The notes under the pieces were generated by a model. It saw only the letters and a program-made list of their open reading frames with translations, searched no databases and was not told the DNA's origin. Made by a program: the position numbers and the translations under genes. A stretch of DNA of 63,417 nt, filler included, from a bacterium (lineage in GTDB: Bacteria; JADJOY01), in NCBI GenBank assembly GCA_046331705.1. It is 9 parts of 9 records of this genome, joined end to end, with 100 filler letters (N's around TTAATTAATTAA, not from the genome) between each part and the next. Parts side by side here need not be neighbours in the genome. Positions count along the whole stretch, not along the records: positions 1 to 13,685 come from JAXLQJ010000102.1; 8 more parts are not named here. The stretch is one strand, 5' to 3'. Below are positions 1 to 27,606 of this stretch, in pieces (position 1 is the first letter of the stretch; each line of letters opens with the position of its first letter).

Positions 1-2
1 TC

Positions 3-89: not shown

Positions 90-171
90 GGCGCTGAGGT
101 TGCTCAGCACATCGAGGGAGCGTGACCGCGACGACGGTTCGCCTGCGTCTCGCGGGCTCGGAGAGATCAAA

Positions 172-546
172 GTGTCGGACAACGTGAAGCGCACCGACCC
201 GCTGACCCAGGACCAGGTCGAGGCCATCGCCGAAGGCGTCCGGCGTCTCCTCGGAGACGAGCTGCTCGACAAGGCAGGTCAGCACGGCATCGACCTTCAC
301 GACTCGATCGCGTTCGGGCCGGTCGCCGCGCAGGTCCAGCAGGCTCGTGAGGCCGAGGGCCTCTCGCTCGAGGACCTGGCGCGTGAGCTGCACGTCGCGC
401 AGTACCGCATCCGCGACGTCGAGGGCTCACGCATCAACCAGATCCAGCCTGACGTCCTGCGGCGCGTGATCGAGCGGCTCGGTCTCGGAGGGTGGTATGC
501 AACCTGGGCCGAGCAGAATGCCGAGCTCGCTCGCCGGCTCACGTAG
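172..546 (+). CDS. XRE-family helix-turn-helix protein
   Basis: QQAREAEGLSLEDLARELHVAQYRIRDVEG is an XRE-type HTH. GTG at 172 is preceded by GGAGAG. Confidence 0.65.
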   Translation: MSDNVKRTDPLTQDQVEAIAEGVRRLLGDELLDKAGQHGIDLHDSIAFGPVAAQVQQAREAEGLSLEDLARELHVAQYRIRDVEGSRINQIQPDVLRRVIERLGLGGWYATWAEQNAELARRLT

Positions 547-649
547 ATCCTGAACGAAGCAACGCTCGACGCCCGCGCCGACGACGGGCTGGTCGGCACC
601 GTCACCTCCAGCGCCCGCCACGACGGCGTGTGCGTCAACCGGGGCGAAT

Positions 650-723
650 GAGCCTGGGGCGCCCGCCGTTCGCGATCCCTCGCGGCGTGGCAGCTACGAA
701 GGTGGGCAATCCTTGGCATCCCC
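650..723. repeat. Copy 1 of imperfect direct repeat plus degenerate tRNA-Glu 3' end (att-like scar)
   Basis: 650-701 matches 4078-4129 at 46 of 52 positions. TGGCATCCCC (714-723) lies at the same offset as TGGTGTCCCC (tRNA 3' end, 4142-4151). Confidence 0.75.
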
Positions 724-1049
724 GGTCGCAAAGAAATTCGTACCGCGGCCGAGGTCCCGTTCGAGGTGGCGCTCGTTGAGACCGAGGGCGGCCGATCTAG
801 CGGTCTCGGAAGAGCGGAACCTCCGCCCATCATTCATGTCCAGGTCACAGCTTGTGAGATCGGCGGCGCGACCGGCGCCCCGGGTGAAGGGTGTACGATC
901 GACGCGGCGAGAAGGCAGTCCTCGACGCGGCCGGCGCGGTCACGCTCCCGCTGGTGACCCGCAACGCGTCGGTCGCTATCCACCTCGACGCGGCGTTGGG
1001 TGCGGTCGATAGTTCGATCTCGCTCGAACCCCGCCGGAGGTCCTCGCGT

Positions 1050-1599
1050 GTGTCCAAGCGCCCGACGTGGTCGATGGTGAAAGCGGCGCTCGAAGGCGCC
1101 GATGCACCGCAGTTGCTCGGCCTCGTGCACGAGCTCTACCAACTTGACGCACGGAACCGCGAGTTCCTTCATGCTCGTTTCGTCGATCGCGCTGCGAGTC
1201 TGGACCGGGCTCGGAAGGCCGTGAGCGACGCGCTCTTTCCCGACCCCTTCAGCAAGCGGGGCGTCCGCCTGAGAGAGGGACGGCAGGCAATCCGTGACTA
1301 CGTCGGCGCGACGGGCGACGCCGCGGGTGAGCTCGACCTGATGATCGGCTACATCGAAGCAGGCACGGCGTTCGCGATGGACGTGGGCTACGACGAGGAC
1401 GCGTTCTTTGCCTCACTCGCCGCCGTGCTTTCCGAGATCCGCGCTCGTGTCAGGCAGATGCGGCCCTACGAAGCGAAGCAGCACGTCACGCGCTTCGAGC
1501 AGCTCGCCGACCTCGGACGCGATCTTCGATGGGGATGGGGCGATGCACGCGTGTCAGCCGCGAAGGCGGTGGCGGACCGCAGCCTTGCGGGCGACTTAA
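1050..1599 (+). CDS. Hypothetical helical protein (DUF6155-like); 3' end approximate, frame runs on into IS remnant
   Basis: GTG at 1050 with GGAGG RBS. Protein-like sequence SKRPTWSMVKAAL...LYQLDARNREFLHARF...WGWGD, after which the frame turns into non-protein-like sequence up to the stop at 2423. Confidence 0.5.
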
Positions 1600-1799
1600 C
1601 CGGGTCGCGGCGGCCCGGCGCAAGGCTCGAACCGCGAGCGCCAACTCGTACCTCAAAGGGCGTTCCCTTCGTTCGCAGACTTCGCTCGCTTCGGTGCGGC
1701 GTACGTCGATCCCGGTGCCGACTACTACGAGGCGAGCTACCGGGAGCGGGTCCTCGCCAACCTCCGGAAGCGAGCGCGCTCGCTGGGATTCGACCTCAT

Positions 1800-2680
1800 C
1801 GAAGGAGAGCCCGCTGGAATCGGAGTTTCTTAGGAAGGCGGCAACCTTCTTCGCGAGGGAAAGCCGATGAGGTTTCACTTCATCGCTGCGGAAAAGGATC
1901 ACTTCCCGATACGCATGCTCTGCCGGGTCTTGCAGGTGACCGCCGCCGGCTTCTACGCGTGGCGACGTCGCGGTCCCAGCGAGCGGGCGACGGCGGATGC
2001 CCAGCTCGCCGTCGCGATCACCGCATCGCATCGTGCGAGCCGCTGCACCTACGGCAGCCCACGTGTGCATCGCGACCTGCGCGAGCAGGGACGGCGCCAC
2101 GGACGCAAGCGCGTCGCGCGCATCATGCGCGAGCGACAGCTCGTCGCTCGGCAGAAGCGCCGCTTCCGGCGGACGACCGACTCGCGGTACGCGTTCCCGA
2201 TCGCACCAAACTGGCTGAAGCGGCGGTTTGCACCGGCGAAACCGAATCAAGTCTGGGCGGCGGACGTCACGTACCTCGCGACGCTGCGGGCCGAGCTCGT
2301 CGACCACGAGCACTACGCGACACGGGAGGCCGCGATCGCGTCGATCGGGGGTTACATCGACGGCTTCTACAACGTTTGCCGCCGGCATTCGTTCCTCGGC
2401 TACGTGAGTCCGCTGGAGTTTGAAGTGCGGGCTCGTCGCTGGCGCGGCCCCTTCTCGACCCGCGATCCTCGACGATCTCCAGGCAACGCGGGGAAACCGA
2501 CCTCGCCAAATGGCTCCAGAGCGCTTCCGCGGAGAGGGGCCGCTACCTCGGTATCCCCCCGCAACGAGCGTGTGAAGCGGTCGCGGCCGCAGGGGAGTCG
2601 CGATCATCCGGGCGATCCACCGGAGGCGAACCCGAACTTTCACGCATAATCATGGTGTCAACGAAATCGGGACAAGATCA
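1800..2680 (+). mobile_element. Decayed IS3-family element: orfA tail plus internally deleted orfB
   Basis: OrfA tail EFLRKAATFFARESR overlaps (ATGA, 1867-1870) orfB MRFHFIAAEKDHFPIRMLCRVLQV...YGSPRV...PNQVWAADVTYL. OrfB then jumps straight to ATLRAELV...FYN..RRHS.LGYVSP, so the DDE core is missing. IS3-like right end GTGTCAACGAAATCGGGACAAGATCA at 2655-2680. Confidence 0.85.
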
Positions 2681-2932
2681 GAGCGTCTTGGCGCTCGTGC
2701 AAGAGCCCGTACGAGCAATGATGGGCTCGCGACTCGACGCAAGCCGCCGCCTCGATCGTCAGCGCGCTCTTGCAGCCTTAGCCTGGTCGACGAGCGCGCC
2801 GGTGCCGAGCTCGCGCAGGTGTTCGAGAGCGCCCACGGCGGTGCGCCGCACCGGCGGGTTGGGGTCGTCGAGCGCCTGGACGAGTACGGGGATCGCACCA
2901 TCGCCGGCACGTGTCACGTGGCGTCCGACCAG

Positions 2933-3088
2933 CTAGGGCCGCCGAGGTCGCTGGGTCGCCACTCGAACCTCTCGCTCGTCGGCGCTCAGCCGGGCTGCGT
3001 CCTTTGCCGACCACCGGATCTCACCGCCCGTCTTGTGGGGCTTGCAGAGTGGGCAGGACCGCCGCTTTCTCTTGAGTCGCTTTCTCAT
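2933..3088 (-). CDS. Small basic CxxC protein (51 aa)
   Basis: ATG at 3088 preceded by AGGAGACAGGAG; MRKRLKRKRRSCPLCKPHKTGG... Confidence 0.45.
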   Translation of the reverse strand: MRKRLKRKRRSCPLCKPHKTGGEIRWSAKDAARLSADEREVRVATQRPRRP

Positions 3089-3172
3089 CTCCTGTCTCCT
3101 GTAACTGCGCCAACCTGCGGAATCTCGCCCCAGACGGACTGCCGGCGAAGATCGCCGAAGTAGGTCCATGCG

Positions 3173-3490
3173 TCAGACCTCGAGCACCACTCGCTCCCCA
3201 TCGTCGAAGACGGCCGCGAGCTCGAGGTGACCTCCGAGCGCCTCGATGTACTCGCGCAGCGTCGAGAGCTGCGGGTCCGCGCTGCGCTCGGCGCGGGAGA
3301 CGCTGGTCTGCTCGACGCCGAGCGCTTCGGCGAGCTGCACCTGTGTGCGGCCGCGCTGCTTCCGCAGCTCGGCGAGCTCGAAGCGCGCATGCTCACGGAG
3401 CGCCGCCTTGCGAATGCGCTCGACGTTGGCCCGGCGCTTCGGATCGGCGAGCACCGGGCCGCTCAGGTCCTTGAAGTTCCGTGCCTTCAT
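3173..3490 (-). CDS. HigA-like XRE antitoxin
   Basis: LAELRKQRGRTQVQLAEALGVEQTSVSRAE...LSTLREYIEALGGHLELAAVF. ATGA overlap with the upstream toxin. Confidence 0.85.
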   Translation of the reverse strand: MKARNFKDLSGPVLADPKRRANVERIRKAALREHARFELAELRKQRGRTQVQLAEALGVEQTSVSRAERSADPQLSTLREYIEALGGHLELAAVFDDGERVVLEV

Positions 3491-3849
3491 GGGATCGAAC
3501 CCTCCTCGCGCAGCTCGGCGAGATACTGCGCGTAGATCGCTTCCGCGCGCGGGATCGCGTCGCGGTACCACTCGTTCCACTGGCCCGACTTGTTGCCCCC
3601 GATGAGGAGCACCGCCTGCCGGATCGGATCGAAGATGAAGAGCACGCGCAGGGCCCCGCCTTCGCTCGCGCGCAGTTCTTTCAGGTTCGGCAGGTTCGAG
3701 CCGATGATCGTGTCCACGGACGGCCGCCCCAGGTTCGGGCCGTGCTCTTCGAGGAGCTGCACGCGGCCCACGAGCGCGTCTTGCTGGTCGGCCGTGAGGG
3801 CGTCCCACCACTCCGCGAATTCGTCGGTGAACAGAACCTCCCAGGGCAT
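3487..3849 (-). CDS. HigB/Gp49-like RelE-superfamily toxin
   Basis: MPWEVLFTDEFAEWW...LLEEHGPNLGRPSVDTIIGS.LPNLKELR...RVLFIFDPIRQAVLLIGGNKSG. Toxin-first order as in higBA. Confidence 0.88.
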   Translation of the reverse strand: MPWEVLFTDEFAEWWDALTADQQDALVGRVQLLEEHGPNLGRPSVDTIIGSNLPNLKELRASEGGALRVLFIFDPIRQAVLLIGGNKSGQWNEWYRDAIPRAEAIYAQYLAELREEGSIP

Positions 3850-4077
3850 GACCGTAGAATGCGCTACAGCGCATACGCAGTCAAGCGCATGTGGGTCGGT
3901 CGACTGAGCGCCCGTACAACATCCTTGACGGTGGTCCGCCAGGCTGCCGATCCCGACTTCGCTGAGGGAAGGCTAGCGACGTCAGGAAGGCGTAGGAGGG
4001 GAATCACGTGAAGCGTCGCAAGCCCGCTCGACGGGTGGATCGACCATCGCGGAGCTCCTGCGCGACGCCGCGCGAGA

Positions 4078-4129
4078 GAGCCTGGGGCTCCCGCCGTTCA
4101 CGATCCCTCGTCGCGTGGCAGGCACGAAG
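4078..4129. repeat. Copy 2 of imperfect direct repeat, just downstream of tRNA-Glu
   Basis: Matches 650-701 at 46 of 52 positions. Confidence 0.75.
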
Positions 4130-4141
4130 CCGAACTATTCC

Positions 4142-4219
4142 TGGTGTCCCCAGGAGGATTTGAACCTCCGTCTCAGGACTGAGGATCCTGCGTCCTGGGC
4201 CGGGCTAGACGATGGGGAC
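4142..4219 (-). tRNA. tRNA-Glu (CTC)
   Basis: Reverse complement folds as a cloverleaf: acceptor GTCCCCA/TGGGGAC, anticodon stem CAGGA/TCCTG with loop TC-CTC-AG, T-loop GGTTCAAATCC, encoded CCA. Confidence 0.9.
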
Positions 4220-4505
4220 GGATGCGTGACGCGCGACTCGTGCGCGGGGCAAGGCTGGGAGAGGCGGGCTTGGGTGTCAACCCAGCGGACACGGCGGGAC
4301 GCCGGCGGCAGACTCAGCGGACGTCGGACCGATGTCGAGGCTCCTCACCACCGCACGCGTGCCGCAGGCGTCTGGTCCGACTCCGGCGTCCGGCGAGGGC
4401 GTGCGTCCCGGGATTGCCCGCCTTCGGTAAGGTCCCCGCGCTCGAATTCGCGACGCGGCTTTCCGGCGGGACTTTCCGCTGCGGCGCGGCGCGCGCTACG
4501 ACTCG

Positions 4506-5315
4506 ATGAGCGATCTCGGAGGCATTCTCGCAGGCGTTCTCGGAGGACTCTGCGTGGAAGCGTTGCGTTCTCGGCGCTGGCGATGGCTGGTGGGCCCGGC
4601 CATGGCTTTGGGCCTGGTGCTGACGGTGCTCGGGTGTGGTGAGTCGTCGCACGGCGGCGGTTCTTCCCGTAGCACGACCGCCCGCGGCGTCGCGTTCAAT
4701 TTCGGGCCGCAGGGCGGCGCGGTCGCCGACGGCGAGGTGTCGATCCTCGAGATGCCGGATCGGGTGACGCGCACCGATGAGGGCGGTGAGTTCGCGTTCG
4801 ACGATCTTCCGGTGGGTTCCCAGGCGTCGTTCGTGCTGCGTGCGCACGGTCGCCCGGAGATTCAGACGGCGACGTTTCTGCTCGGCGAGCCGCCGCTCGA
4901 GGGCGTCTCGTTCCAGTCGCCGGACGACACGATGGTGGCGCTCTTGGCGCTGCTGGTCGGCGCGGCACCGCGAGCGGATCGCTGCCAGCTCGCGGCGACC
5001 GTGACTCGCGCGAATCCCGAGCTGGTGGCGGGGAAGACGCACGGTGAGCCCGGCGCCACGGTGACCATCGATCCAACTCCCGCGGAGGCGGATGGTCCGA
5101 TCTACTTCAACCTGATCACCTGGAACGCGATCTGGCCGGATCGGCGCCTCTCTGCCACCACGGACGACGGTGGCGTGCTCTACGTGAACGTAACGCCGGG
5201 GACGTATCGGTTGCGCGCGCACAAGGCGGGCGTGATGTTCCGCGACGTCGCGGTCACGTGTCGCGCCGGGATCGTCGCGAACGCCGCGCCGCCATGGGGG
5301 CTTCAGGCGGAGTGA
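4506..5315 (+). CDS. Putative lipoprotein with carboxypeptidase-regulatory-like (beta-sandwich) domains; true start may be downstream
   Basis: Lipobox-like VLTVLGC; motifs TRTDEGGEFAFDDLPVG and GVLYVNVTPGTYRLRA. Confidence 0.6.
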   Translation: MSDLGGILAGVLGGLCVEALRSRRWRWLVGPAMALGLVLTVLGCGESSHGGGSSRSTTARGVAFNFGPQGGAVADGEVSILEMPDRVTRTDEGGEFAFDDLPVGSQASFVLRAHGRPEIQTATFLLGEPPLEGVSFQSPDDTMVALLALLVGAAPRADRCQLAATVTRANPELVAGKTHGEPGATVTIDPTPAEADGPIYFNLITWNAIWPDRRLSATTDDGGVLYVNVTPGTYRLRAHKAGVMFRDVAVTCRAGIVANAAPPWGLQAE

Positions 5316-5603
5316 GCCGGAAATCGCGTCGTCGGCGCGGCGTCGTGGACGTCCGAAGCGTGCCCTCGCTGCGCCGGGATCGACAGATCGCCGCGCGTTG
5401 CGAACGGATCCCCGCCCGTTGCGTGCGGTGCCTTCCCAGCAGCCCCTCCGCTGGCGGCGCCGCACGGCGCCGCTGGGCTGGTACGCGAGGGGGCGGATCG
5501 GCCAGGCGAGCGAGTGCGTGCCAAGCGCTTGTTGGCCGTTGGCTCACGCCGCCGCGGGGATCGCCGCGGCACGCGACGTGATGGCCGGCAGCGCCGCCGT
5601 GCG

Positions 5604-5930
5604 CTACGGCTCGAACGAGCAGACGTACTCGGCGATGCCGGACGCGACCGTGATGTCGAAACCCGAACGCGCCGGCACGCGGAAGCTGGTGCCCGCGCCG
5701 TGGTCGCGCCATTCGCTGGTGCCGTCGAGGCGAACGCGGCAATGCCCGGCGACGATCTCCATCACTTCGGCGGCGTCGGTGCCGAAGTGGAACTCGCCCG
5801 GGTAGATGAGCCCGAGCGTCTTCCGGCTGCCGTCGGCGAAACGGATGGTGTGGCTCACGACCTTGCCGTCGAAATAGACGTTGGCTTTCGCGACGGCGGT
5901 GACGTTCGAGAATTCGCGGGTGTCGTTCAT
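5604..5930 (-). CDS. ppnP: Pyrimidine/purine nucleoside phosphorylase (YaiE/DUF1255)
   Basis: KANVYFDGKVVSHTI.FADGSRKTLGLIYPGEFHFGT.AAEVMEIVAG...YVCSF. Confidence 0.9.
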   Translation of the reverse strand: MNDTREFSNVTAVAKANVYFDGKVVSHTIRFADGSRKTLGLIYPGEFHFGTDAAEVMEIVAGHCRVRLDGTSEWRDHGAGTSFRVPARSGFDITVASGIAEYVCSFEP

Positions 5931-6123
5931 GGCGGCCGAGTTTGGCACGGACGAAGGGGCGACGTGCTCGGGAGCGATTCGCCGCGGTGCGCGGCGCGTC
6001 GGGCCGGATTTCGCGAAGCGCTCGCCGTGGCGTGCGCGCGAGCGGTCGAGCTGATCTCGAGTTGCGGGGTGAGTTGAGGGTTGCGGCGGATGACGCGCGC
6101 ATCTAGCATGGCGCGCGCCGATC

Positions 6124-7107
6124 GTGACCCCCGCCATGCCTCGTCGCGGAGCATCTTCCCGTCGCCGTTGCCGCTCGCCGCACCTGGCGGAGCTCGCGCG
6201 GCTCGTGCTCCTGGTGTTGCTCGTCGGCGGAGCCGCGTGCGGCGGCGACGCGGCGCACGATCCCGCGCTGCGCGAGGGTTTCACGGCGACGCGCTACCCG
6301 ATCGTCCTCACGCCGGGCTTTCTGGGCTTCGACTCGATCCTCGACGCGATCGACTATTGGAACGGGATTCCCGAGGCGCTCGCCGCCGACGGCGCCGACG
6401 TCTTCGTCACGCGCGTGAGCCAGGTCAACTCGAGCGAGGTGCGCGGCGAGCAGCTGATCCGCGACATCGAGGAGGTGCTGGCGGTCACCGGCGCCGAGCG
6501 CGTGAATCTGATCGGCCACAGTCAGGGAACCCTCGACGCGCGCTACGTGCTGGGCGTCCGGCCGGACCTGCTCGCCTCCGTGACCTCGGTTGCGGGGCCG
6601 CACCGGGTGGAGGCGTTCGATGCGATCGAACCGAATGCCCTCACCAACCTGGGCTTCGCGCTCCTCGGAACCCTCGGTGACCTGATCGGGCTGCTGTCGC
6701 CGGGCGACGACCCCAACGATCCCGCGGCGGCCGCTTTCCTCATCGGCGGCGGGCTGAGCGATTTCAACGCCCGCTTTCCGGCGGGCTTGCCTTCCGACGC
6801 CTGCGGCGAAGGCCCAGCGAGGTACCGCGGAATCCCGCTCTACTCGTGGTCCGGCGTTGGTCAAGGCACGGTGGCGGGCGATCCCCTCGACTGGCTCTTC
6901 ATCGCCACGGGACCGTTCTTCGACGAGCCCAACGACGGGCTGGTGCCGCGGTGCTCGTCGCATTTCGGGCGAGTGATCCGCGACGACTACCTGCACAACC
7001 ACCTCGACGAGATCAACTGGACCTTCGGTCTGGTTCCGGAATACGAGACCCACCCGGTCGAGGTGTTTCGAAATCACGCGAATCGGCTGCGCAATCAGGG
7101 GCTCTAG
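6124..7107 (+). CDS. Triacylglycerol lipase, family I (possibly lipoprotein)
   Basis: TRYPIVL.PGFLGF, nucleophile GHSQG, NDGLVPRCSSHFG, NHLDEIN; followed by a foldase gene. Confidence 0.92.
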   Translation: MTPAMPRRGASSRRRCRSPHLAELARLVLLVLLVGGAACGGDAAHDPALREGFTATRYPIVLTPGFLGFDSILDAIDYWNGIPEALAADGADVFVTRVSQVNSSEVRGEQLIRDIEEVLAVTGAERVNLIGHSQGTLDARYVLGVRPDLLASVTSVAGPHRVEAFDAIEPNALTNLGFALLGTLGDLIGLLSPGDDPNDPAAAAFLIGGGLSDFNARFPAGLPSDACGEGPARYRGIPLYSWSGVGQGTVAGDPLDWLFIATGPFFDEPNDGLVPRCSSHFGRVIRDDYLHNHLDEINWTFGLVPEYETHPVEVFRNHANRLRNQGL

Positions 7108-8253
7108 ATGCCCGGAGCCGGGCTCGACCGGCGCGCAGCCGCCGGCGGAGGCGCGGCGGATCGTGCCGCGGCTCGAGCGGTAGTCGCGCGCGGTCTGGTG
7201 CTGGTTTCGTTCGCGATGGGGGCGGTGGGCTACGTCCTGGCGGTGCGGGCTCGCCACGGCGCCGCGATCGCTCCCCGCGACCCGCCGCGCGTGACTCGCC
7301 CCGCGCCGGTCACCGAGTCGCGTCGGCCGATCGGTGACGCACCGCCGATCTCCACCGCGCCCCCGCCCGCCCCAGCGCCGGGCGACTCGCTCGCCAACGC
7401 CGCTTCGCGAGCGCTCGAAGGCACCAGCGTCGACGGCGAGTTGGTGGTCGGGCTCGACGGACATTTTCGTCCCACCGCCGCGGCGATCCGCTTGTTTCGC
7501 CATTTCATGACGGCCAACGGCGAATGGAGCCGTGATCAGGTCCGCCGCCGCATCGAGAGTGAGATCGACGCAAGGCTGGCTCCGCCCGCGTCCGCCGAGG
7601 CGCGCGCGTTCCTGGATCAGTACGTCCGTTATCTGGATGCGAGCCGGAGTCTCGATCCCGCCGGGCTCGACGCCCGCGACCTCGCGGGGCGGCTTTCCCA
7701 GGTTCGCGACCTGCAGCGATCCATCTTCGGCGCCGCGCTCGCCGAAGCGCTCTTCGGCTCCGAGAACGCTCTCGCGGAGGCGGCGCTCGATCGGCTGATG
7801 GCACGCCTCCACGCGACCTCGACCGCCGAGACTCCCGCGCCGCGCGATGGAGAGAGCGAGCGTGACGGCGGTGCCGAAGACCGCCTCCCCCCCGAGGTGC
7901 GCGCGATCCGCGAGCGTGCCGCCGCGCCCATCGAGAGCGCTCGGCAGGTCGAGTCGCTCCGTCGAGGCGGCGCCGATCCGGAAGAGGTGCGTGCCGAGCG
8001 GGTGGCGCGCTTCGGCGCGGACGCCGCCGCGCGACTCGAAGACCTCGACCGCCAGCGAGCGCAGTGGGAAGCGCGCCTCGCCGCCTACCGGGTGGCGCGC
8101 GACGCCGTGTTGCGCAACCCCGCGCTCGACACGGCGCAGCGCACCGCGGCCCTGGAGCGAGTGCGCGAAGAGCGATTTTCGGGCGACGAGATCCGCCACG
8201 TCGCCGAGCTCGACCGGCTCGACGCGAGTGCGGCAGCGATGAACGCACACTGA
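7108..8253 (+). CDS. Lipase-specific foldase (Lif/LipB chaperone)
   Basis: N-terminal TM anchor, SRALEGTSVDGEL, RLFRHFMTANGE (R..FDYFL-type motif), RFGADAAARLEDLDRQRAQWEARLAAY; directly after the lipase. Confidence 0.9.
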   Translation: MPGAGLDRRAAAGGGAADRAAARAVVARGLVLVSFAMGAVGYVLAVRARHGAAIAPRDPPRVTRPAPVTESRRPIGDAPPISTAPPPAPAPGDSLANAASRALEGTSVDGELVVGLDGHFRPTAAAIRLFRHFMTANGEWSRDQVRRRIESEIDARLAPPASAEARAFLDQYVRYLDASRSLDPAGLDARDLAGRLSQVRDLQRSIFGAALAEALFGSENALAEAALDRLMARLHATSTAETPAPRDGESERDGGAEDRLPPEVRAIRERAAAPIESARQVESLRRGGADPEEVRAERVARFGADAAARLEDLDRQRAQWEARLAAYRVARDAVLRNPALDTAQRTAALERVREERFSGDEIRHVAELDRLDASAAAMNAH

Positions 8254-8339
8254 GCGATCGCGCCTCGGGCCCCGAGCAGCGTCCGCGCAGCCGCGCCACC
8301 CTGGGACCACCGGAATCCCGGGTGATCTCGGCCGACTCC

Positions 8340-8415
<76 letters not shown>

Positions 8416-8708
8416 GTAGCTGCCACCTACTTTGATCGATGGCGTCTTGCTCGTGGAGTCAGCGGCGTGCGCTCGCGACGGCGACGTTGTCGCTCGACCG
8501 TTCGCTCCGGCACCGCGCCGACTGCCCGATCATCCCCTGTGTTGTAGCGCCCAACGGCAGCGATTGTCTTGTCCTCGGCCGCCCGCCCCGTGGGCCGAGA
8601 GCCGCGGGCCTCGAAGCCGCTCGTGAGCGCCGCCGCACCGAGGGTCGCCGCCACTCATCCGGGAGCCCGGACCTCAAGCCCGTGGGCGAGCCAGCCGAAG
8701 AGATGCCC

Positions 8709-9143
8709 ATGAGCCTCATCGGCGGCATCCGGGCCGGTCCGAGTCGGCGTCTGTTCGCGTACTTTCTTCCGCTCGATCTCGTCTTCAAGGTACTCACGTT
8801 CGTTCCGTTCGTTGCCGGGCTCCGGATCGCAGCCGCCGGGGAGCGCGCGTCGGTTTACGCCTTTCTGGCCATCCTGGCGGGCGTCGGGCTCGCGGTTTGG
8901 ATGGCGTGGGCCGTTCGGTATCTCCGTCCCGTCGACCGCTGGGAAAGGCAGCACCTGGAGGATGCGTCGTCGGCCGAGGCGCTCGCGCGGGCCGCGAAAG
9001 CCATCGCCTGGGCGCCTTCGAATATTGCTGATGCTCTTGTCAGAAGTTCGCCGCGAGCGTTCGTTTCGAGGACGGCTCGTTCGCCGATTGAACGGAGAAT
9101 CCTGGCGCGCATGGTTCATGCACGCGCCTCGGCCGCGGTGTGA
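8709..9143 (+). pseudogene. Two-TM membrane protein fragment, possibly the truncated N-terminus of a sensor
   Basis: Two hydrophobic segments followed by LRPVDRW..; the frame then degenerates. Confidence 0.3.
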
Positions 9144-9250
9144 GCCAGGAGTGGCGCCGACGCGTCGCGCGGCGTCCCGCGCCGTGCGCTCGCAGGCGCG
9201 AGCGGCCAACCGTCGAAAGGCTTCGCGGGCCGCAGGATCCCAGCGCCGTC

Positions 9251-10975
<1,725 letters not shown>

Positions 10976-11109
10976 GGGGCGTGTGGCGCGGGCGTGGGCA
11001 ACGGCCGCGTCCTGTGCGCGTGTCGTCGATGATACCGATTCAATTCGCGCGCCGAAACGGCGCCACGCCATCGTTCGAGCGCGCCGACGCTAGCGGTGCG
11101 CGTATCCGG

Positions 11110-11230
11110 TGAGCTTTCTCAGACCGAGTGCGAGTGCGCTCGGGTATCGGTGCCTCGAGCCGCGTTGAGATACGGCTGTGCTCGCGTGAGGGCGAGCAAC
11201 TCAGCGCTTCGTGCAGGTGACTCAACGCGG
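11110..11230. promoter_or_regulatory. Candidate upstream activator sequences
   Basis: TGAG-N4-CTCA (11110-11121), TGAG-N9-CTCA (11187-11203), and a perfect 10-bp inverted repeat CCGCGTTGAG (11160-11169) / CTCAACGCGG (11221-11230), about 80-200 bp upstream of the -24/-12 element. Confidence 0.4.
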
Positions 11231-11311
11231 ACCGATCGCGGCGAGCGCCGGGCTCGCTCTCGCCTCGCGGAAAACGCCAACGATCTCCGCGATCGTTCGC
11301 GACGTGCCCGG

Positions 11312-11327
11312 CGGCACGTCTCTCGCA
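11312..11327 (+). promoter_or_regulatory. Sigma54 (-24/-12) promoter for the RING-E1-E2 operon
   Basis: cGGCACGtctcTCGCa: GG (11313-14) and GC (11325-26) separated by exactly 10 nt, against consensus TGGCACG-N4-TTGCW. Confidence 0.65.
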
Positions 11328-11541
11328 TTCGCAGTGCAGCGTGCGCGTGATGTGACGCGCGCCGTGCCGCACGCGAGGCCGGTGGTCTCGATCGCCGGTG
11401 CCTCCGTCCTCCGCGTCCCATGGCAGCCGAAGCTGGGCGTGGTGCGCACTGCGCGCGAGGCGTGGTGCGCGCTGGTGGCGATCGCAGTCGTGTTGCATGT
11501 TCAAGCCGATCGTGAATCGAAATGCAGAAGGAGCGAACGGC

Positions 11542-12096
11542 ATGGCTCAGCTCTTACTCAAGCCGTCGAGCCAGGAAGGTGAGTGGACGGTCCGTCCGAT
11601 CGACACGGACGCCGCGCTGGCGCTCGACGAGCGCGGTGCCGCGCGCTCGCTGCGGCGCTGCGACGTGCTCGACGTGTTGCTGCGCGCGCCCGATGGCGCG
11701 GTGCTGCTGGGTGTCGGCGGAGCAGGAGAGCGCTGGCTGCTCGTGGCACGTGCCGGCGTCGATCTTCACGTCAACGACCGGCCAGTCTCGGCGGGTACGC
11801 GCGTGCTGCGCGACAAGGACGAGATCCGCCTGGGCGCCGGCGCGGTGCCGATCTTCTTCTCGACGGAGCGCGTGGCGCGGATCGAGCCGTTCGAGGGCAG
11901 CGGCGTCGCGGCGAGCTGCCCCCGTTGCCGACTGCCGCTCGAGGCCGGCGCGCCGGCGGTGCGCTGCCCGAGTTGCGGCGTCGCGCACCATCAGCGTGAG
12001 GGGCTGCTGTGCTGGACCTACGCCGAGTCCTGCGCCGTGTGCGGTCATCCGACGCCGCTCGAAGCGGATCTTCAGTGGGTCCCGGAGGCGGTGTGA
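11542..12096 (+). CDS. FHA-like domain plus prokaryotic RING finger (candidate E3 ligase)
   Basis: AAGGAG RBS. LHVNDRPVSAGTRVLRDKDEIRLG resembles the FHA C-terminal strands. C-x2-C-x12-C-x2-C-x3-HH-x6-CW-x5-C-x2-C RING-type pattern. Confidence 0.75.
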   Translation: MAQLLLKPSSQEGEWTVRPIDTDAALALDERGAARSLRRCDVLDVLLRAPDGAVLLGVGGAGERWLLVARAGVDLHVNDRPVSAGTRVLRDKDEIRLGAGAVPIFFSTERVARIEPFEGSGVAASCPRCRLPLEAGAPAVRCPSCGVAHHQREGLLCWTYAESCAVCGHPTPLEADLQWVPEAV

Positions 12097-12172
12097 AGCG
12101 GCGCGGCCCGCGCGGAAGCCGCGTGGGCGCGCGTGCGTCGATCGAGCCAACGATGAGGAGCGAGGGAAAGCC

Positions 12173-13309
12173 GTGGTGACCGTGACGTTGATCGGGCTTG
12201 GGGTGGTTGGGTCCCACGCCGTGGGACTGCTCATCCGGATGGGGCTCATCGACCGGCTGATCCTGGTCGACCCCGACGTCTACGACGAGTCCAACCTCAC
12301 GAGCCAGTGCATCGAGCCGCGGGACGTGGGGCGGCCGAAGGTGCTGGCGCAGAAGCGACGGGTGCGCGCGATCGCGCCCGGCATCGACGTCACGGCGATC
12401 CAGAGCCGCCTCGAGGACCTTCCGCCTGGACGACTGCGGGCGGACGTGATCGTTACGTGCCTGGATTCAGCCGCGGCGCGGATCGACGCGAACGAGATCG
12501 CGGGAATGCTGGGCGTGCCGCTCATCGATACCGGTGTGCGCGGCGCGGATCTGCTGGGTCGCGTGGATGTCTACCTGCCCAGCCCGAGATGCGCGTGCTT
12601 CGAGTGCCTGCTCGCGGCCCACGACTACCAGCAGGCCGAGGTCGTTCACTCGTGCGAGGAAGGTCGCGATCCGCGCCGCGCGCGGCCGACACCGGCGCCA
12701 AGCGCGACGTCGGCCGCCCTCGGCTCGTTGGTCGCCTCCGCGACGGTCGTCGTGCTCGAGGAGCTCCTGCGCTCGCGCGATCCGGGCGCGCTCGCCGGCC
12801 GCCGCATTCTGTTCGAGCTCCGAAACCATCGGCACGCCGTCAGCCGGCTACCGTTCAATCCCGCGTGCCGGCGCTCGCCGCACGAGCCGTGGGCGATTCG
12901 ATCGTTCGGCGAGCACGCCTCGCGCCTCACGTTCACCGAGCTTCACGCGCAGGTGGGCGCCGCCACGAGCGACGCCGCCATCCGGATCTTCGGCACGCGC
13001 TTCGTGACCGAGGTCGTGTGCGTGCGCTGTGGGCGAAAGCGCCGAGTGGTGCGCGTCGAGCGCGGCCTCGGTGGCGCGCGGGGTTGGTGCGGTGCATGTC
13101 ATCGCCCGATGGAAGTGACGAGCCTCGGTCTCGTGGAGTGGCTGCCGCTCGCGGCGCTCACGTCGCGTGAGCTGGATCGCGCTCTCGAGAGCTTCGGCCT
13201 CGCGCGCGGCGACGTCGTCACGATTCGCTCACGCGGGACCGAGCGACACGTCGAGCTCAAGTTGCCGCGCGGCGCGGGCGGCGCCGCGCAGGCGAGGGAG
13301 GAGTCATGA
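12173..13309 (+). CDS. ThiF/MoeB-family E1-like activating enzyme with C-terminal Zn ribbon
   Basis: LIGLGVVGS (GxGxxG), VDPDVYDESNLTSQ, GRPKV, CLDS.AAR, CFEC, candidate catalytic HSC, C-terminal CVRC...CGAC. GTG start inferred. Confidence 0.88.
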   Translation: MVTVTLIGLGVVGSHAVGLLIRMGLIDRLILVDPDVYDESNLTSQCIEPRDVGRPKVLAQKRRVRAIAPGIDVTAIQSRLEDLPPGRLRADVIVTCLDSAAARIDANEIAGMLGVPLIDTGVRGADLLGRVDVYLPSPRCACFECLLAAHDYQQAEVVHSCEEGRDPRRARPTPAPSATSAALGSLVASATVVVLEELLRSRDPGALAGRRILFELRNHRHAVSRLPFNPACRRSPHEPWAIRSFGEHASRLTFTELHAQVGAATSDAAIRIFGTRFVTEVVCVRCGRKRRVVRVERGLGGARGWCGACHRPMEVTSLGLVEWLPLAALTSRELDRALESFGLARGDVVTIRSRGTERHVELKLPRGAGGAAQAREES

Positions 13310-13685
13310 ACGATCCGCAGTTGCAGGGCTTCCTGCGCGAGCAGCAAAAGGCCGCGCACGCGCTCAACGCCGCCAGCGATGTGGTGACGCTGGTTCCGTT
13401 GCCGCGCGGCTTCCACGCGCTCGACACGCTGGGCGGGCTGCTTCAGCTCCTCGGTGCCCCGGTGGCGCTCGACGCGGAGCCGGGGCTCGGTCCGGAGACC
13501 GAAGAGCCCCCGACCCACTACCTGGCCCGGTTCTCGTGCGGAGGGTTGGTCCGGAACCCGGACGGGAGCGTGCGCACGGCCAGCGACTGGCTCGTGGGGA
13601 TTCGCTTTTCCGACGACTACCTACGCCGCGTACGACCGTTCGAGGTGGTGACGTTCATCGGTCCCGAGAGCGTGTGGCACCCCAA
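13306..13685 (+). CDS. E2 (UBC-like) conjugating enzyme, 5' part; continues at 31991-31751 on the minus strand
   Basis: GGAGGAG RBS, ATGA overlap with E1. Ends ...VGIRFSDDY...GPESVWHP at the contig end; the last 21 nt overlap the contig 3 end. Confidence 0.85.
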
Positions 13686-23423: not shown

Positions 23424-25607
23424 CTCGCGAACGACGTCGCCGCCATGGGGCCGGATGCGCAGCTCCGCCGCGCGCGCCGCCGGCGTTCCGATCGCGATCG
23501 ATCCGTCGCTCGACGCGGACGCAAGCCGCTGACTGCCGTCGGGACACCAGGCCAGGCTGTAGACCACGTCCCGATGCGGGCGCGTCTCCACGTGGGCGCC
23601 GAACCGCGCGCCGCCCGCCTCGCCGCGCTCGACGGCCCAGATGCGCACGGTCCCGTCGCAATAGCCCACGGCGAGCTCGCCCCGATCGGACCACGCGAGC
23701 GATCGCGCGGAGCCCTCGGAGACGCGCGCGCTGTCGAGCGCGATCCCGTCGCGGCTCCAGAGCCGGACCTCGCCGTCCTTCGCGGCCGATGCCAAGAGCG
23801 CACCACGCCGATCCCAGCGCACCAGACGCACCCAGTCGGCGTGGCCTTCGAGCGTGGCGACCGCGCTTCCGGTGGCGTCGTCCCAGAGTCGGACGGTGCC
23901 ATCCGTGGACGAGCTCGCGAGCCTGAGCCCGTCGCACGACCACTCGAGCCAGCTCACCGGCTCCGCGTGACCGGAAAGCTCGCGGATCAGCCGCACGCCG
24001 TCGAGGCGTTCCCGGCCTCGCTGCCGAAGGCGCAGCATGCGCCCGATCGCGTCGTTCGGACCTCCGGCTGGCTCGGGTACCCAGCTCTCGACCGTCGTGA
24101 ACGGGTCCGTGAGATCGAGTCGCTCGAACCCGTCGCCCTGCGATGCGGGCCGCCAGACGGCGCGCCAATCGCAGAGCGCCTTCGGCTCGTGCGCCAGCTT
24201 CCGCACCCACTCGCCGCGCAACCGGGCGCGCCCTTCGGACGGCGGCTCGGTGAGCGCCGGCTCCACGTCCTCGGCGCCGCGCACCCGATGGGCGGCGAGC
24301 CCCACGGTCTCGAGCTGCGCGTGAAGTCCGTTGCGCCCGATCTCGGCGAAACGCCAGTCGATCTCGAAGAGCTCGGCGCGCAGCGCTCGCAGCCGTGCGA
24401 ACGCGTCGAAATCGGGTAACGCCGCATCGGGCGGCGCGAACGACCGGTACGCGCGCCGCGCCTCCCCAGCGTCTCCGATCACCAGGTCGAAAGGACGAAG
24501 CTGCGGGTTGCGGTCGTGGGCTGCTGGCCACTGCCGCCGCAACGCCACGAGCGCGGCGTTGAGCTGCTCGATCTGCTCGCGGGTGAATCCGCGCTGGGCG
24601 GCGTGCTGGGCGAAGAGCCGACGTTTGGCCGTCCAATCGAGCGAGAGCTCGGTCGCGTCGTCGAGAGCGTCGAGCCCGTCGAGAACCGCGCGCCACTCGC
24701 GGCACGCTTCGCGGGCCCAGCTCGGCAGATGCACCGCGCCGTCGCCGAGGGCGCCCTCGACGACCGCGAGGTACGCACGCTGGAGCTCGATGGCGCTCGC
24801 GAGCTCGCCGCCCGCCACTCGGGCGCGCTTCGTGAGGCCCGGATCGCGCGCGAAGCGCTGCATCGCCGCGAGCGGTCGCACGAGCTGCCCGCGCGCACCG
24901 AGCGCTCGGCCCTGCTCCGCGAGCGTGATCACCAGCGCCGTGGTGGCGAGCTTGAGCCAGAGCGCGCGATCGGACGCATTCGACTCGCCGCAGATCAGAT
25001 GGACGCGCTTCTGACCTGGCGGCGCGTGGGGCTCGTCCCGGGTGTGGAAGATCGGTCGCTCGGTCTGACTGTCGCCGCCGATGTCGCGGGTCAGATGATG
25101 GACCCGCGGCGAGAGCGAGAACGCGATCCCCGGCGACGACGCATCGAATCCGCCAGCGCCCGTGTACACGATGCGCGAGACCAGGTGCGGGATCAGCACC
25201 CGCGCCAGGCCCGCGATGTCGCCGCGGAAGAGATAGCTCTCGTGGGTGCCCCACGTGCACCCGGACACGTAGTCCACGTTGGTGCGAAAGAGCTTGCCGT
25301 CGACGGGGCCGCCCTCGCTCCGCAGCAGTCGTGCCAGGATCCGCTCGCCGGCGCGGACGTAGCGCACGGCGTCCGTGGGATCGACGACCTCGGCCGTAGC
25401 CACCTCGGGGTGCCAGCCCGCGTCGACGTAGAAGCAAGAGCCGTTGGTGAGCCAGAGCCGCCGCCCGCTGGCGTCGCGCAGATGAGGGAGCGTGGATTGG
25501 GCGGCGCGGAACAGCTCCTCGACGAGCGCTCCCGAAGGGCGCGTTCCCGAGACGAACGCGAACTCGGTCTCGACGCCGAAGAACGTCCGCGCCGCCGCTG
25601 CTGGCAT
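23424..25607 (-). CDS. PafA-like Pup ligase fused to C-terminal WD40 repeats (3'-truncated by contig end)
   Basis: FFGVETEFA, NGSCFYVDAGWHPEVATAE, TWGTHESYL, RPIFHTRDEPHA, RVHLICGESN, RARLRGEWV..CDW..LTDPF, then at least four GH...LAS.S.DG.VRLW repeats. ATG overlaps the Pup stop (TAATG). Confidence 0.9.
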
Positions 25608-25807
25608 TACTGGCCTCCCTCCTGGCGGCTCGCGGCCAGGAACTGCTCGCTGTTGCCCGAGAGCACGCGGCGCACGATGTCCTGGCCCGCCGCGAGCAGC
25701 CGATCTCCGGCCGCGCGCGCGGCATCGAGCGCACCCGCCCCATCGTCCGCGCCGCTCGGCGGCCCGCCCGTCCCCGAATGCTCCCGTCGTCGTTCGCGTT
25801 CCGACAT
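25607..25807 (-). CDS. Pup-like (prokaryotic ubiquitin-like) modifier, 66 aa, ending GGQ
   Basis: GGAGGTGAGG RBS; low-complexity N-terminus; C-terminus SEQFLAASRQEGGQ resembles Pup AEDFVRAYVQKGGQ; lies between the dop-like and pafA-like genes. Confidence 0.88.
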   Translation of the reverse strand: MSERERRREHSGTGGPPSGADDGAGALDAARAAGDRLLAAGQDIVRRVLSGNSEQFLAASRQEGGQ

Positions 25808-25813
25808 GACACC

Positions 25814-27583
25814 TCACCTCCCATACGTTCGGCTCGTGCCGTGGACCGGCAGGAGCGAGTTTCCCCATCCGCGATCGGGCACGTCCTCGGCGTGAAGCGC
25901 ATCGAGGAGCGCCGACAAGCTCTCGTTGGCCGCGAACGCCGCACCCGTTCGCGCCTCGCCGCGCTGCGCCGGCCGATCGAGCCGGACCACGCGCTCGCGC
26001 GAGCGGCCGTTCGATCCGCCGCCGCGCACGTGGACCCGATCCCAATCGACCTCCGTCACCCGCTCGCCGGCGCGCCGGAGCAACATCGCCCGCGTCCACG
26101 CGCGCGTGTCCGGTGGCGGCTCGCGGACGAAGCGATCGATCTCGTCGTCGCTGACGAGGCGGCGCGACAGCCCGGCGCGATCGAGCGCCCAGAAGATCCC
26201 GCCCTCGGGATCGAGGCTCGCGTAGACGAGATCGAGGTGCTTGATCGCCGGCGAGTCCCAACCGAGCCGAGGCTCGCTGCTCACCACCTCGTCGAGGAGC
26301 GCGCGCTTTTGGACCCAGTCCAGCTCCGAGCGCAGCGCGTCGAAGTCGCGGCGGCCGAGCTTGTCGAGGGTCTCGGACCAGATCTGGACGATCTCGCGGG
26401 CGCCCGGAACGATCTCCTCGATGACGTCGCAGCGCTCCACGAAGCGTCCGACATCCTCCAGGAATTGCAGCTGCAGCTCCACCGCCGTCACCGCGCCGCC
26501 CGACACCAGCCGCGCCCGCACACCGAGATCCGGATCGTGTGACCAGGACCGAAACGCCTCGACCGGATCCTCGAGAATCCGCTCGACCCGCACCGCCTCG
26601 GCTTCGATGAGCGCGGACACGAGCTGCATGAGGCCCACGCGCAACAGCATCGACACGTGGTTGAGCGTGGTGTCGAAGCTGATGACGTGCAGCCGCGCGA
26701 AGCGGTGGTCCTGACCGCGCGAATCGTCGCGCCATCGATCCCGCTCGCCACAGAGTGCTTCGTCGCGCGTGTTGACGATGGGACGGTGGTACGTGGTCTG
26801 TGGGCCGCTCAGCGTCTCGATGAAATCCGCGCGCTGCGAGATCTGGAACGGGACCGCGGGAGCATCGTTCTCGCTGCCGACCTTTCCCTGGCCGGTGAGG
26901 ACGATCGCCGAGGCCTGGAAGGAGGCCAAGAAGAGCGCGTAGTGGAGCTTGCGGTGGAAGAGGTTCTCCCACGCTTGGCGCGACACCAGCACGTTGAGAT
27001 GGCCGCCGTAGCTCTGCCCCTGGCCGTCCGAGTTGTTGGCGAGGACCTGGATGGGCTCGTCGCCTCCACGCTTGGCGTTGGCGTTCTCCTGCGCACGGCG
27101 CGCGATCCGGAACATCGCGTGAAGCGCGGCGACGTGATCACGCGCACAGCGAACCTCCGGGATGCAGAGCTCCAGATGGTCGAGATCGATGTACGCGCAG
27201 CCGCCGTTCGACGCGAGGTACTGGCGTCCGATGTCCTGCGGGTCCTCACGCCCGTATGCGCCGTACGCCGAGCCGTAGCCTGCGCCGTACCCCGAACCGT
27301 ACGTCGACCCGTACCAGCCGCCGTAGCGGCGGTCGCTCGCCGCCGGCCACGACGAGGCGAGCGGCGCCGCGCGTTTGGGAAGCCCCTCGATTTCCGCGAG
27401 CAGCGCCCGCGACGCCTCTCGACCGCTGCCGGCGCCGGTCGTGGAGCTCGCGGACGCACCCTCGGGCGGCGCACCTCCACGTCCGGTGACGAAGTTGCCG
27501 AGCTCCACGTCTGCCCCGGTGATCTTGGGCACGAGGAAACGAACGCGGCTGCTCGGCGCTCGTGCTCGATTCGGCTTGGCCAT
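25814..27583 (-). CDS. Dop-like Pup deamidase/depupylase (PafA/Dop family)
   Basis: KITGADVELG, long loop before NGGCAYIDLDHLE, NNSDGQGQSYGGH, GQGKVG, FQISQRADFIE, RPIVNTRDE, RLHVI, PPPDTRAWTR, VDWD. Confidence 0.88.
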   Translation of the reverse strand: MAKPNRARAPSSRVRFLVPKITGADVELGNFVTGRGGAPPEGASASSTTGAGSGREASRALLAEIEGLPKRAAPLASSWPAASDRRYGGWYGSTYGSGYGAGYGSAYGAYGREDPQDIGRQYLASNGGCAYIDLDHLELCIPEVRCARDHVAALHAMFRIARRAQENANAKRGGDEPIQVLANNSDGQGQSYGGHLNVLVSRQAWENLFHRKLHYALFLASFQASAIVLTGQGKVGSENDAPAVPFQISQRADFIETLSGPQTTYHRPIVNTRDEALCGERDRWRDDSRGQDHRFARLHVISFDTTLNHVSMLLRVGLMQLVSALIEAEAVRVERILEDPVEAFRSWSHDPDLGVRARLVSGGAVTAVELQLQFLEDVGRFVERCDVIEEIVPGAREIVQIWSETLDKLGRRDFDALRSELDWVQKRALLDEVVSSEPRLGWDSPAIKHLDLVYASLDPEGGIFWALDRAGLSRRLVSDDEIDRFVREPPPDTRAWTRAMLLRRAGERVTEVDWDRVHVRGGGSNGRSRERVVRLDRPAQRGEARTGAAFAANESLSALLDALHAEDVPDRGWGNSLLPVHGTSRTYGR

Positions 27584-27606
27584 GGCTCACCTCGCGCGCG
27601 CGGCGC

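Follow-up and report, generated by a model that had tools for sequence, protein, structure and literature searches.

The genome bin GCA_046331705.1, from a bacterium of the GTDB lineage JADJOY01, was analysed as one stretch of 63,417 nucleotides (nt), hereafter the window, in which nine contigs of this metagenome bin are joined end to end with 100-base spacers between them (N runs around TTAATTAATTAA). We find that contig 1 and contig 3 of this window carry the two halves of a single gene for a divergent ubiquitin-conjugating enzyme (E2) of the UBC type, and that the gene is restored when contig 1 is joined to the reverse complement of contig 3 through an exact overlap of 21 nt. It is almost certain that the two contigs are contiguous in the genome in this arrangement, the residual doubt being that the joined haplotype may be a composite of strains. 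The joined locus is a cassette of ten tightly packed genes on one strand, larger than the preliminary description of this DNA had inferred, and consists of a eukaryote-like ubiquitination set (Module A) and a pupylation-like set (Module B). We regard the reading as a whole, an assembly break within one gene for a divergent UBC-type E2 that belongs to one cassette with two modules, as highly probable; its firm parts are the join, the assignment of the genes to families, the gene order shared among loci and the failure to detect a 20S proteasome in any of five carrier genomes.

An exact 21-nucleotide overlap joins the two halves of one gene

The terminal 21 nt of contig 1, at positions 13665-13685 on the plus strand (CGAGAGCGTGTGGCACCCCAA), are present as an identical 21-mer on the minus strand at positions 31992-32012. 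This 21-mer occurs exactly twice in the window, where none is expected from 100 shuffles, and both copies abut the 100-base spacers, which places them at the 3' ends of contigs 1 and 3 as laid. Comparison of all 18 contig ends revealed no other end-to-end overlap of 10 nt or more, and the ends of contigs 1 and 3 are the only pair in the whole window with a common terminal 15-, 17- or 21-mer; the overlap is not a chance match. Contig 1 stops after the second base of the Asn127 codon, inside the HPN motif of the E2 and nine residues before Cys136. In the join, ...GAGAGCGTGTGGCACCCCAA would be followed by the reverse complement of the sequence from 31991 downward. The open reading frame (ORF) that begins at 13306 is still open at the end of contig 1 after 126 codons and two bases, while the minus strand of contig 3 opens in frame and reaches a stop codon at 31751.

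With the 126-amino-acid (aa) half as the query, a word-indexed search through 5.8 billion proteins returned a protein of 206 aa from Logan assemblies (P0001), whose residues 1-126 and 121-206 are 100% identical to the contig-1 and contig-3 halves, respectively. The merge computed from the window sequence has 621 nt and encodes 206 aa identical to P0001, a protein recorded on four contigs of other assemblies. The preliminary description had claimed an exact overlap between the two contigs, a merge of 380 nt (13306-13685) and 241 nt into 621 nt, or 206 codons and a stop, and a product containing the peptide ...FIGPESVWHPNIAGRKHAICIG...; the overlap is borne out, with only two copies and both of them at contig tips, the arithmetic is correct, and the peptide is found in P0001. 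Its suggestion that annotators would have seen two fragments also agrees with the database, as the 90%-identity cluster of P0001 includes separate NCBI proteins of 126 aa (from a 13,685-bp contig) and 86 aa (from an 8,589-bp contig). Two further members of the cluster are variants that are intact at 206 aa: P0005, which comes from a different NCBI assembly and has one substitution, and P0006, which has five. Their presence implies that the collinear gene exists in related strains, beyond re-assembly of identical sequence.

Sequencing runs that contain the 1-kb end of contig 1 come from 12 different studies, all on activated sludge and wastewater. When Logan contigs of four of these runs, from four studies, were compared with positions 11400-13685 of the window, contigs in all four extended past base 13685, by 515, 3,515, 157 and 156 nt. 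The contig from one run (X4) has a length of 6,859 bp, which is that of the longest contig on record for P0001.

More distant relatives of the E2 also read through the junction. A phmmer search against 1.84 billion representatives gave 495 relatives at E <= 0.001, of which 257 reached E <= 1e-10; most are 165-190 aa long and align in one stretch to approximately residues 67-200 of the query, spanning the junction. A search for loci with P0001 itself returned none in genome contigs or metagenome contigs; through one E2 relative, P0198, we retrieved 12 related loci (L001-L012), all in reference genomes that belong to Acidobacteriota/Terriglobia, Gemmatimonadota or Planctomycetota. Both halves of the E2 map to one ORF in 12/12 loci, on the same strand and overlapping at the join. 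All 10 of the loci that are long enough have genes for a RING-like protein and an E1-like enzyme upstream of the E2, and genes for a ubiquitin-like protein (Ubl), a JAB-type metallopeptidase and an AAA ATPase downstream; L005 and L008 are short contigs, the content of which is collinear as far as present. Alignment of the merged protein to full-length homologs, a check that had been proposed with the original observation, yields a single uninterrupted stretch across the junction, and the 100% match to P0001, the intact variants and the 12 uninterrupted loci together uphold the claim that the two contig ends belong to one gene.

An exact overlap of 21 nt at both tips fits a break in a de Bruijn assembly graph at or near k = 21, in agreement with the k-mer break proposed in the preliminary description; taken by itself, the join is an ordinary assembly break, though one that is useful for annotation. 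The sludge and wastewater population is micro-diverse: over positions 11400-13685 the contigs of run X4 differ from the window at 27 of 2,286 bases, and an A>G change at 13623 is found in three of the four runs. Micro-diversity of this kind can create branch points in an assembly graph. A repeat shared across species is not supported as the cause of the break, the 21-mer being alike at only 10-14 of its 21 bases in distant loci.

The same micro-diversity, with its many variant sites among the contigs of the four runs, the existence of strain variants of the E2 and the nature of bins as population composites would be compatible with contig ends that derive from different strains or from paralogous E2 cassettes, in which case the joined haplotype would be artificial and the gene-level picture unchanged. 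We consider this very unlikely. A protein identical to both halves is encoded on four contigs of other assemblies; the window holds no second E2-like sequence (the next tblastn match has an E-value of 0.24), and the related loci have a single E2 per cassette. The tetranucleotide composition of contigs 1 and 3 is correlated at 0.99, a weak argument as all contig pairs lie between 0.91 and 0.99. The two 21-nt copies are inverted relative to each other as laid in the window, an arrangement that would also be seen if an inversion or rearrangement, its breakpoints marked by a 21-bp inverted repeat, had truly interrupted the E2 gene and left the halves as a pseudogene. This explanation is improbable in the extreme: orientation within a concatenated bin is arbitrary, the copies lie exactly at the contig tips with nothing beyond them, intact versions of the E2 with 97.6-100% identity exist elsewhere, and contigs from other samples pass straight through base 13685. 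The evidence thus favors one continuous gene that was divided by assembly.

The restored protein is a divergent UBC-type E2

When 72 relatives of the restored protein are aligned, Cys136 is invariant, and His125, Pro126 and Asn127 are each at least 90% conserved. Of the 60 PDB chains listed as matches to a profile built from the family, 59 are UBC-type E2s, with eukaryotic UBC enzymes among the hits and 4gpr as the best match (E 4.9e-4); the profile brings the HPN motif and the cysteine into alignment with the HPN...C active site of 4gpr and 4x57. An AlphaFold2 model of the full 206-aa protein has a mean predicted local distance difference test (pLDDT) score of 90.5 and a predicted template-modelling (pTM) score of 0.86. 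Foldseek comparison of this model with the PDB gave, among the matches listed, only UBC-type E2s or complexes that contain them, again with 4gpr as the best (E 5.8e-4), and with template-modelling (TM) scores, normalised to the target, of about 0.5-0.66. The conserved HPN motif, the invariant Cys136, the profile and the fold all point to UBC enzymes, in keeping with the identity first proposed for the protein. With its 206 aa restored, it is a UBC-type E2 of a divergent branch, which profile and fold recognise and the Pfam model does not.

The E2 gene lies within a conserved ten-gene cassette

The join brings ten genes into one array, on the plus strand of contig 1 and the minus strand of contig 3, in the order RING-like, E1, E2, X, Ubl, JAB, AAA, Dop-like, Pup-like and PafA-like, where X is a conserved protein encoded directly after the E2 (Table 1). 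The largest gap between neighbouring genes is 76 nt, and there are four start/stop overlaps. Among these, the E1/E2 and E2/X pairs each overlap by 4 nt (ATGA), the former at 13306-13309, and the stop codon of the Pup-like gene overlaps the ATG of the next gene by 1 nt. All-versus-all clustering of ORFs from the 12 related loci recovered the order RING, E1, E2, X, Ubl, JAB, AAA, ligase, ligase throughout; across the three phyla, every locus of sufficient length keeps to it.

Table 1. Coordinates of the contigs, the overlap and the cassette genes in the window, and of the Pup-like ORFs in related loci.
Feature	Position	Strand	Description
Contig 1	1-13685		Orientation as laid in the window
Contig 3	23424-32012		Orientation as laid in the window
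21-nt overlap, copy A	13665-13685	+	3' tip of contig 1; encodes E121-P126 and the first two bases of N127
21-nt overlap, copy B	31992-32012	-	Reverse complement of copy A, at the tip of contig 3
RING-like protein, putative E3, 184 aa	11542-12096	+	C-terminal Cys/His-rich treble-clef region; N-terminal domain without known family
E1-like adenylating enzyme (ThiF family)	12173-13309	+	Pfam ThiF, E 1.6e-28
E2 gene, 5' part	13306-13685	+	Residues 1-126 and two bases of codon 127; 100% identical to P0001 residues 1-126
E2 gene, 3' part	31751-32012	-	Residues 121-206 and stop; N127, Cys136, C-terminal helices; 100% identical to P0001 residues 121-206
X, 317 aa	30801-31754	-	Conserved; start overlaps E2 stop by 4 nt
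Ubl, 95 aa	30441-30728	-	Weak beta-grasp (YukD-like) signal; ...IDAG(92), then tail AGA
JAB/JAMM metallopeptidase, 349 aa	29360-30409	-	N-terminal extension; predicted Ubl-tail processing and deconjugating enzyme
AAA ATPase, proteasomal/Mpa type, 577 aa	27607-29340	-	OB domain; Pfam AAA 7.9e-32, Prot_ATP_ID_OB_C 8.8e-7
Pup-ligase-family protein 1, 589 aa	25814-27583	-	More Dop-like; Pfam Pup_ligase 8.3e-92
Pup-like protein, 66 aa	25607-25807	-	Ends ...RQEGGQ; between the two ligase genes
Pup-ligase-family protein 2 (PafA/Dop-like)	23424-25607	-	C-terminal WD40 repeats; open at the start of contig 3; Pfam Pup_ligase 2.3e-78
Pup-like ORF in L001	16109-16306
Pup-like ORF in L003	16743-16964
Pup-like ORF in L004	15719-15925
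Pup-like ORF in L006	16326-16520
Pup-like ORF in L007	14148-14348
Pup-like ORF in L009	9260-9463
Pup-like ORF in L011	16471-16680
Pup-like ORF in L012	16152-16355

The cassette is adjoined divergently by an ORF of 606 aa (window 9251-11071, minus strand) with a GESGTGK Walker-A motif, which by eye looks like a sigma-54-type activator. In L002, L005, L006 and L007 a homolog of this ORF stands directly upstream of the RING gene and shares the strand of the cassette; in L011 the homolog is downstream and on the other strand. The gene may be a dedicated regulator of the cassette. Long antisense 'shadow' ORFs were observed over every cassette gene, for example at 9725-11032 and 26657-27631 on the plus strand, and these cluster as apparent conserved families across the loci (F2, F6, F10-F15). 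They are an artefact of high GC content that could mislead ORF-based annotation.

Module A resembles a eukaryote-like ubiquitination set

Wherever a locus is of sufficient length, all five part types of Module A (E1, E2, RING, JAB and Ubl) occur in it in the conserved order. The start codon of the E1 is uncertain, and the GTG at 12173 was chosen; the gene lies upstream of the E2 in 12/12 loci. The RING-like gene is directly upstream of the E1 in 11 of the 12, the remaining locus, L008, starting inside the E1. A possible FHA-like N-terminus of the RING-like protein is a sub-threshold atlas lead (0.85-0.87) that has no Pfam match.

Eleven of the 12 loci encode X, L005 ending before its position, and in the window as in 11/11 loci its start lies three bases ahead of the final base of the stop codon of the E2. 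This constant overlap of 4 nt implies that the E2 and X are translationally coupled. The window protein matches no Pfam family, and YbjN matches one of 12 homologs; in the atlas X appears as two tandem YbjN/CesT-like domains. Its predicted structure (pLDDT 81, pTM 0.82) compares with single type III secretion chaperone domains at TM scores of 0.55-0.66, normalised to the target, with E-values of only 0.02-0.1. A tandem chaperone-fold adaptor is a reasonable, though not proven, interpretation of this model. A Foldseek match of X to the Arp2/3 subunit ARPC2 (E about 2e-4) was rejected, the TM score being about 0.25 and the root-mean-square deviation about 17 Å. The predicted complex of E2 and X has a score of 0.01, against a mark of 0.32, and is given no weight either way.

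The YukD family matches six of 12 homologs of the Ubl, with a best E-value of 0.0021, and there are single matches to UBX-L, a ZFAND1-type UBL domain and ThiS; we take all four to be beta-grasp families. Comparison of the Ubl profile with PDB sequences gave nothing informative (best eL19, E 1). Gly92 is at least 90% conserved in 12 aligned sequences, within the segment ...QPNIDAG, and the tails that follow this glycine vary from one to more than 50 residues, which implies that a peptidase exposes the reactive glycine. The adjacent JAB protein, which matches the PADLOC JAB model (8.1e-5) and has an HSH...S..D motif in its translation, is presumably this peptidase, by analogy with the CsRpn11/CsUb pair in PMC6043591 and the BilC/BilA pair in passages of PMC10557695.

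Module B resembles a pupylation set

Both ligase proteins score far above the 25-bit cutoff of the Pfam Pup_ligase model. The first is found in 10/10 long loci at 48-56% identity and is more similar to Dop (267-274 bits) than to PafA (190-216 bits). Counterparts of the second in eight loci have 506-600 aa and are too short for a WD40 fusion, which thus seems specific to the lineage of the window.

The window and 8/8 loci that reach this far have, between their two ligase genes, an ORF of 64-73 aa with the C-terminus GGQ (SGQ in L009) and a conserved tail, ...LSG.SE.F...RQ.GGQ. The NCBIfam model pupylate_cterm matches one of nine of these ORFs (E 0.053). Five of seven PDB matches of a profile built from them are Pup chains, and the alignment of the profile with Pup extends to the C-terminal GGQ. 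Passages of PMC2588565 (Iyer 2008) characterise Pup as a protein of 50-90 aa that ends in G[EQ] and is encoded beside a ligase gene, and the ORFs agree with this description in size, terminus and position. The small ORF encodes a Pup-like protein, one that the usual models of Pfam and NCBIfam miss.

The flanks of the 12 loci contain no conserved proteasome family. Five carrier genomes (G001-G005, behind L001, L003, L006, L011 and L012), all of them metagenome-assembled genomes (MAGs), were searched with PF00227: four have one match each, of about 171 aa, and the fifth has none; all three of the strong matches tested are HslV equivalogs. G002 contains an additional weak, unnamed PF00227 match of 174 aa (L016).

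Several of these results weigh against the reading of the locus given above. The junction at the DNA level is inferred from protein identity and from the matching size of the 6,859-bp contig. P0001 matches no Pfam family even at E <= 1, and so lacks a match to UQ_con, which is found in 12 of the 72 E2 relatives at E <= 0.1 (best 1.5e-6). While the E1 and E2 are clear among the five part types of a ubiquitin operon, the other three fall just under their Pfam cutoffs: the RING-like protein with Prok-RING_1 (E 2.6e-6; 27.7 bits, cutoff 29.1), the JAB protein with Prok-JAB (E 8.8e-5; 22.8 bits, cutoff 25) and the Ubl with YukD (E 0.0021; 19.2 bits, cutoff 27). In Module B, the scores with the NCBIfam models are below the equivalog cutoffs. 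The best model for the ATPase, pup_AAA (8.7e-73), gives 246 bits against an equivalog cutoff of 505; ligase 1 of the window has 267 bits with Dop (cutoff 492) and 212 with PafA (cutoff 551), and ligase 2 scores about equally with PafA (200 bits) and Dop (199 bits), both below the equivalog cutoffs. Such scores imply distant homologs rather than orthologs by NCBI criteria. The Pfam Pup model matches none of eight Pup-like ORFs at E <= 1, and the best PDB match of their profile, Pup (7px9_G), has a weak E-value of 0.026. A 20S proteasome alpha/beta pair was not detected in the five carrier genomes, which are MAGs, so that its absence is not proven. All 12 loci were retrieved through P0198 and therefore sample one E2 subfamily.

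Proposed roles of the two modules

The biochemical steps that follow are inferred, as would be any cross-talk between the modules, and as is the cause of the assembly break. The JAB peptidase would trim the tail of the Ubl after the conserved Gly92, and the ThiF-type E1 would adenylate the Ubl, form a thioester with it and pass it to Cys136 of the E2. The RING-like protein could then serve as an E3 that directs transfer of the Ubl to target lysines, while X, the protein coupled translationally to the E2, may be an adaptor that aids the E2 or the choice of substrate. In Module B, the Dop-like enzyme would deamidate the terminal glutamine of the Pup-like protein to glutamate and the PafA-like enzyme would ligate the protein to lysines, with the WD40 repeats as a possible substrate-binding part in the lineage of the window. 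The Mpa-like ATPase would engage the tagged proteins and, in a cell without a 20S proteasome, might unfold or extract them, or hand them to another protease.

That Modules A and B form one pathway is possible, with a likelihood that we would place between low and not quite even. An integrated dual-tag pathway that operates without a 20S proteasome, in which the Ubl and the Pup-like tag are attached to the same targets or to each other and are served by one Mpa-like unfoldase, seems somewhat unlikely. A further possibility, which we consider less likely than not, is that the ubiquitin-like and Pup-like modules work independently of each other and are only carried side by side by a single mobile island: each has the parts known to suffice alone, with E1, E2, RING, Ubl and JAB as in the archaeal system in passages of PMC5654768 and with ATPase, Dop, Pup and PafA as in actinobacteria, and no fusion protein bridges them. 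Such independence is harder to reconcile with an order and tight spacing that are kept in 10/10 long loci from three phyla (the module-boundary gaps in the window are 19-31 nt) and with a single ATPase per cassette; moreover, none of the retrieved loci has one module alone, though the sample is biased to one E2 subfamily.

By analogy with the Bil operons and with the Cap2/Cap3 operons of CBASS (systems of signalling against phage that use cyclic oligonucleotides), the cassette might also be a defence system against phage, which we judge unlikely. Its patchy spread over Acidobacteriota, Gemmatimonadota and Planctomycetota would suit such a role, and passages of PMC10557695 describe uncharacterised bacterial operons with Ubl, E1, E2, RING E3 and deubiquitinase genes as predicted to be antiviral. 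The PADLOC models, however, returned only generic matches, to the E1 adenylation domain (E1-E2 models, best 1.4e-12), to JAB (8.1e-5) and from the AAA protein to TRIP13/IetA, and none for the E2, the RING-like protein, X, the Ubl or the two ligase-family proteins; the sigma-54-type activator-like neighbour, present in the window and five loci, suits regulated housekeeping or stress use equally well.

Implications of the joined locus

Two fragments that were recorded as separate proteins of 126 and 86 aa without a family become a complete E2 when joined, and the join connects two half-operons as a single system. Such cases in fragmented bins can be rescued cheaply, and in a way that can be checked, through exact k-mer overlaps between the tips of contigs. 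Bacterial operons with E1, E2, RING, JAB and Ubl genes have been regarded as rare and uncharacterised; here the set is conserved across at least three phyla, and its union with a Pup-like module and an Mpa-like ATPase occurs in genomes in which nothing but HslV was identified from the proteasome family. If the modules cooperate, the cassette bears on the coupling of ubiquitin-type tagging to ATP-dependent unfolding. Were the integrated dual-tag pathway true, a bacterial system would unite two tagging chemistries otherwise known from separate lineages and would offer a tractable model for tagging coupled to an unfoldase before, or without, the proteasome. The ten-gene cassette could be reconstituted in E. 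coli.

Comparison with known systems

The operon of Caldiarchaeum subterraneum, reconstituted in vitro, encodes ubiquitin, E1, E2, a small RING E3 and an Rpn11-type JAB protein, according to PMC5654768, PMC6043591 and PMC4197634. Like that operon, Module A combines five part types compactly: its E1 is of the ThiF type and its E2 is a UBC enzyme with HPN and Cys, and the rest is made up by the putative RING-type E3, the JAB protein and the Ubl, which score just under their Pfam cutoffs and of which the Ubl has a C-terminal glycine that processing would expose. The present cassette differs in that it is bacterial, in that its Ubl is at best YukD-like and ends in ...DAG and a tail instead of GG, and in the extra protein X that is coupled to the E2. 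Its ubiquitin-like set is also physically linked with an Mpa-like ATPase and with a module of the Pup/Dop/PafA-like kind, and the carrier genomes have no detected 20S proteasome.

Burroughs, Iyer and Aravind (2011; Mol Biosyst 7:2261) reportedly proposed that YukD-like Ubls are conjugated by bacterial systems of this type, a proposal with which the YukD signal of the present Ubl agrees. Passages of PMC4197634 mention "related", "uncharacterized" operons in Actinobacteria, Planctomycetes and Acidobacteria, and part of Chambers et al. (PMC10557695) refers to bacterial RING E3s as "rare examples"; both sources cite Burroughs et al. 2011 for such operons. Two of the phyla named in that part of PMC4197634, Planctomycetes and Acidobacteria, overlap with the carriers of the cassette. 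As a further link to these operons, the RING protein here matches, at its sub-cutoff score, the Pfam Prok-RING_1 model.

The gene order of the actinobacterial Pup-proteasome system is mpa, dop, pup, prcB, prcA, pafA. Module B follows it with an OB-domain AAA ATPase, then a Dop-like protein, a small GGQ protein and a PafA-like protein, and the small gene adjoins a ligase-family gene, as does Pup in passages of Iyer 2008 (PMC2588565). Unlike the actinobacterial system, all four parts fall under the equivalog or Pfam-Pup thresholds, prcBA is lacking from the neighbourhood and was not detected in the five carrier genomes, the second ligase has WD40 repeats (in the window only), and the module is joined to a ubiquitin-like one. 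Pup systems without adjacent proteasome genes are described for Rhodopirellula and Plesiocystis in part of Iyer 2008 (PMC2588565), and passages of PMC7947786 describe single PafA/Dop homologs in Planctomycetes.

With BilABCD and the Type II CBASS proteins Cap2/Cap3, as presented in PMC10557695 and PMC10097602, the cassette shares bacterial conjugation machinery of E1, E2, JAB and Ubl, and a Ubl with a conserved glycine followed by a short removable tail. In contrast to BilB and Cap2, the E2 here is of the UBC/HPN type, closest to eukaryotic E2s, and a RING protein is present; the PADLOC models miss the E2, Ubl and RING protein of the cassette. Our literature search, which had Burroughs 2011 and supplements outside its scope, found no paper with E1/E2/RING and Pup/Dop/PafA/Mpa in one cassette. 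Taken together, these comparisons show that the E2 and Module A belong to a known but uncharacterised kind of operon and, while an earlier description is possible, that the conserved union of Module A with the Pup-like module and X is new as far as we have checked.

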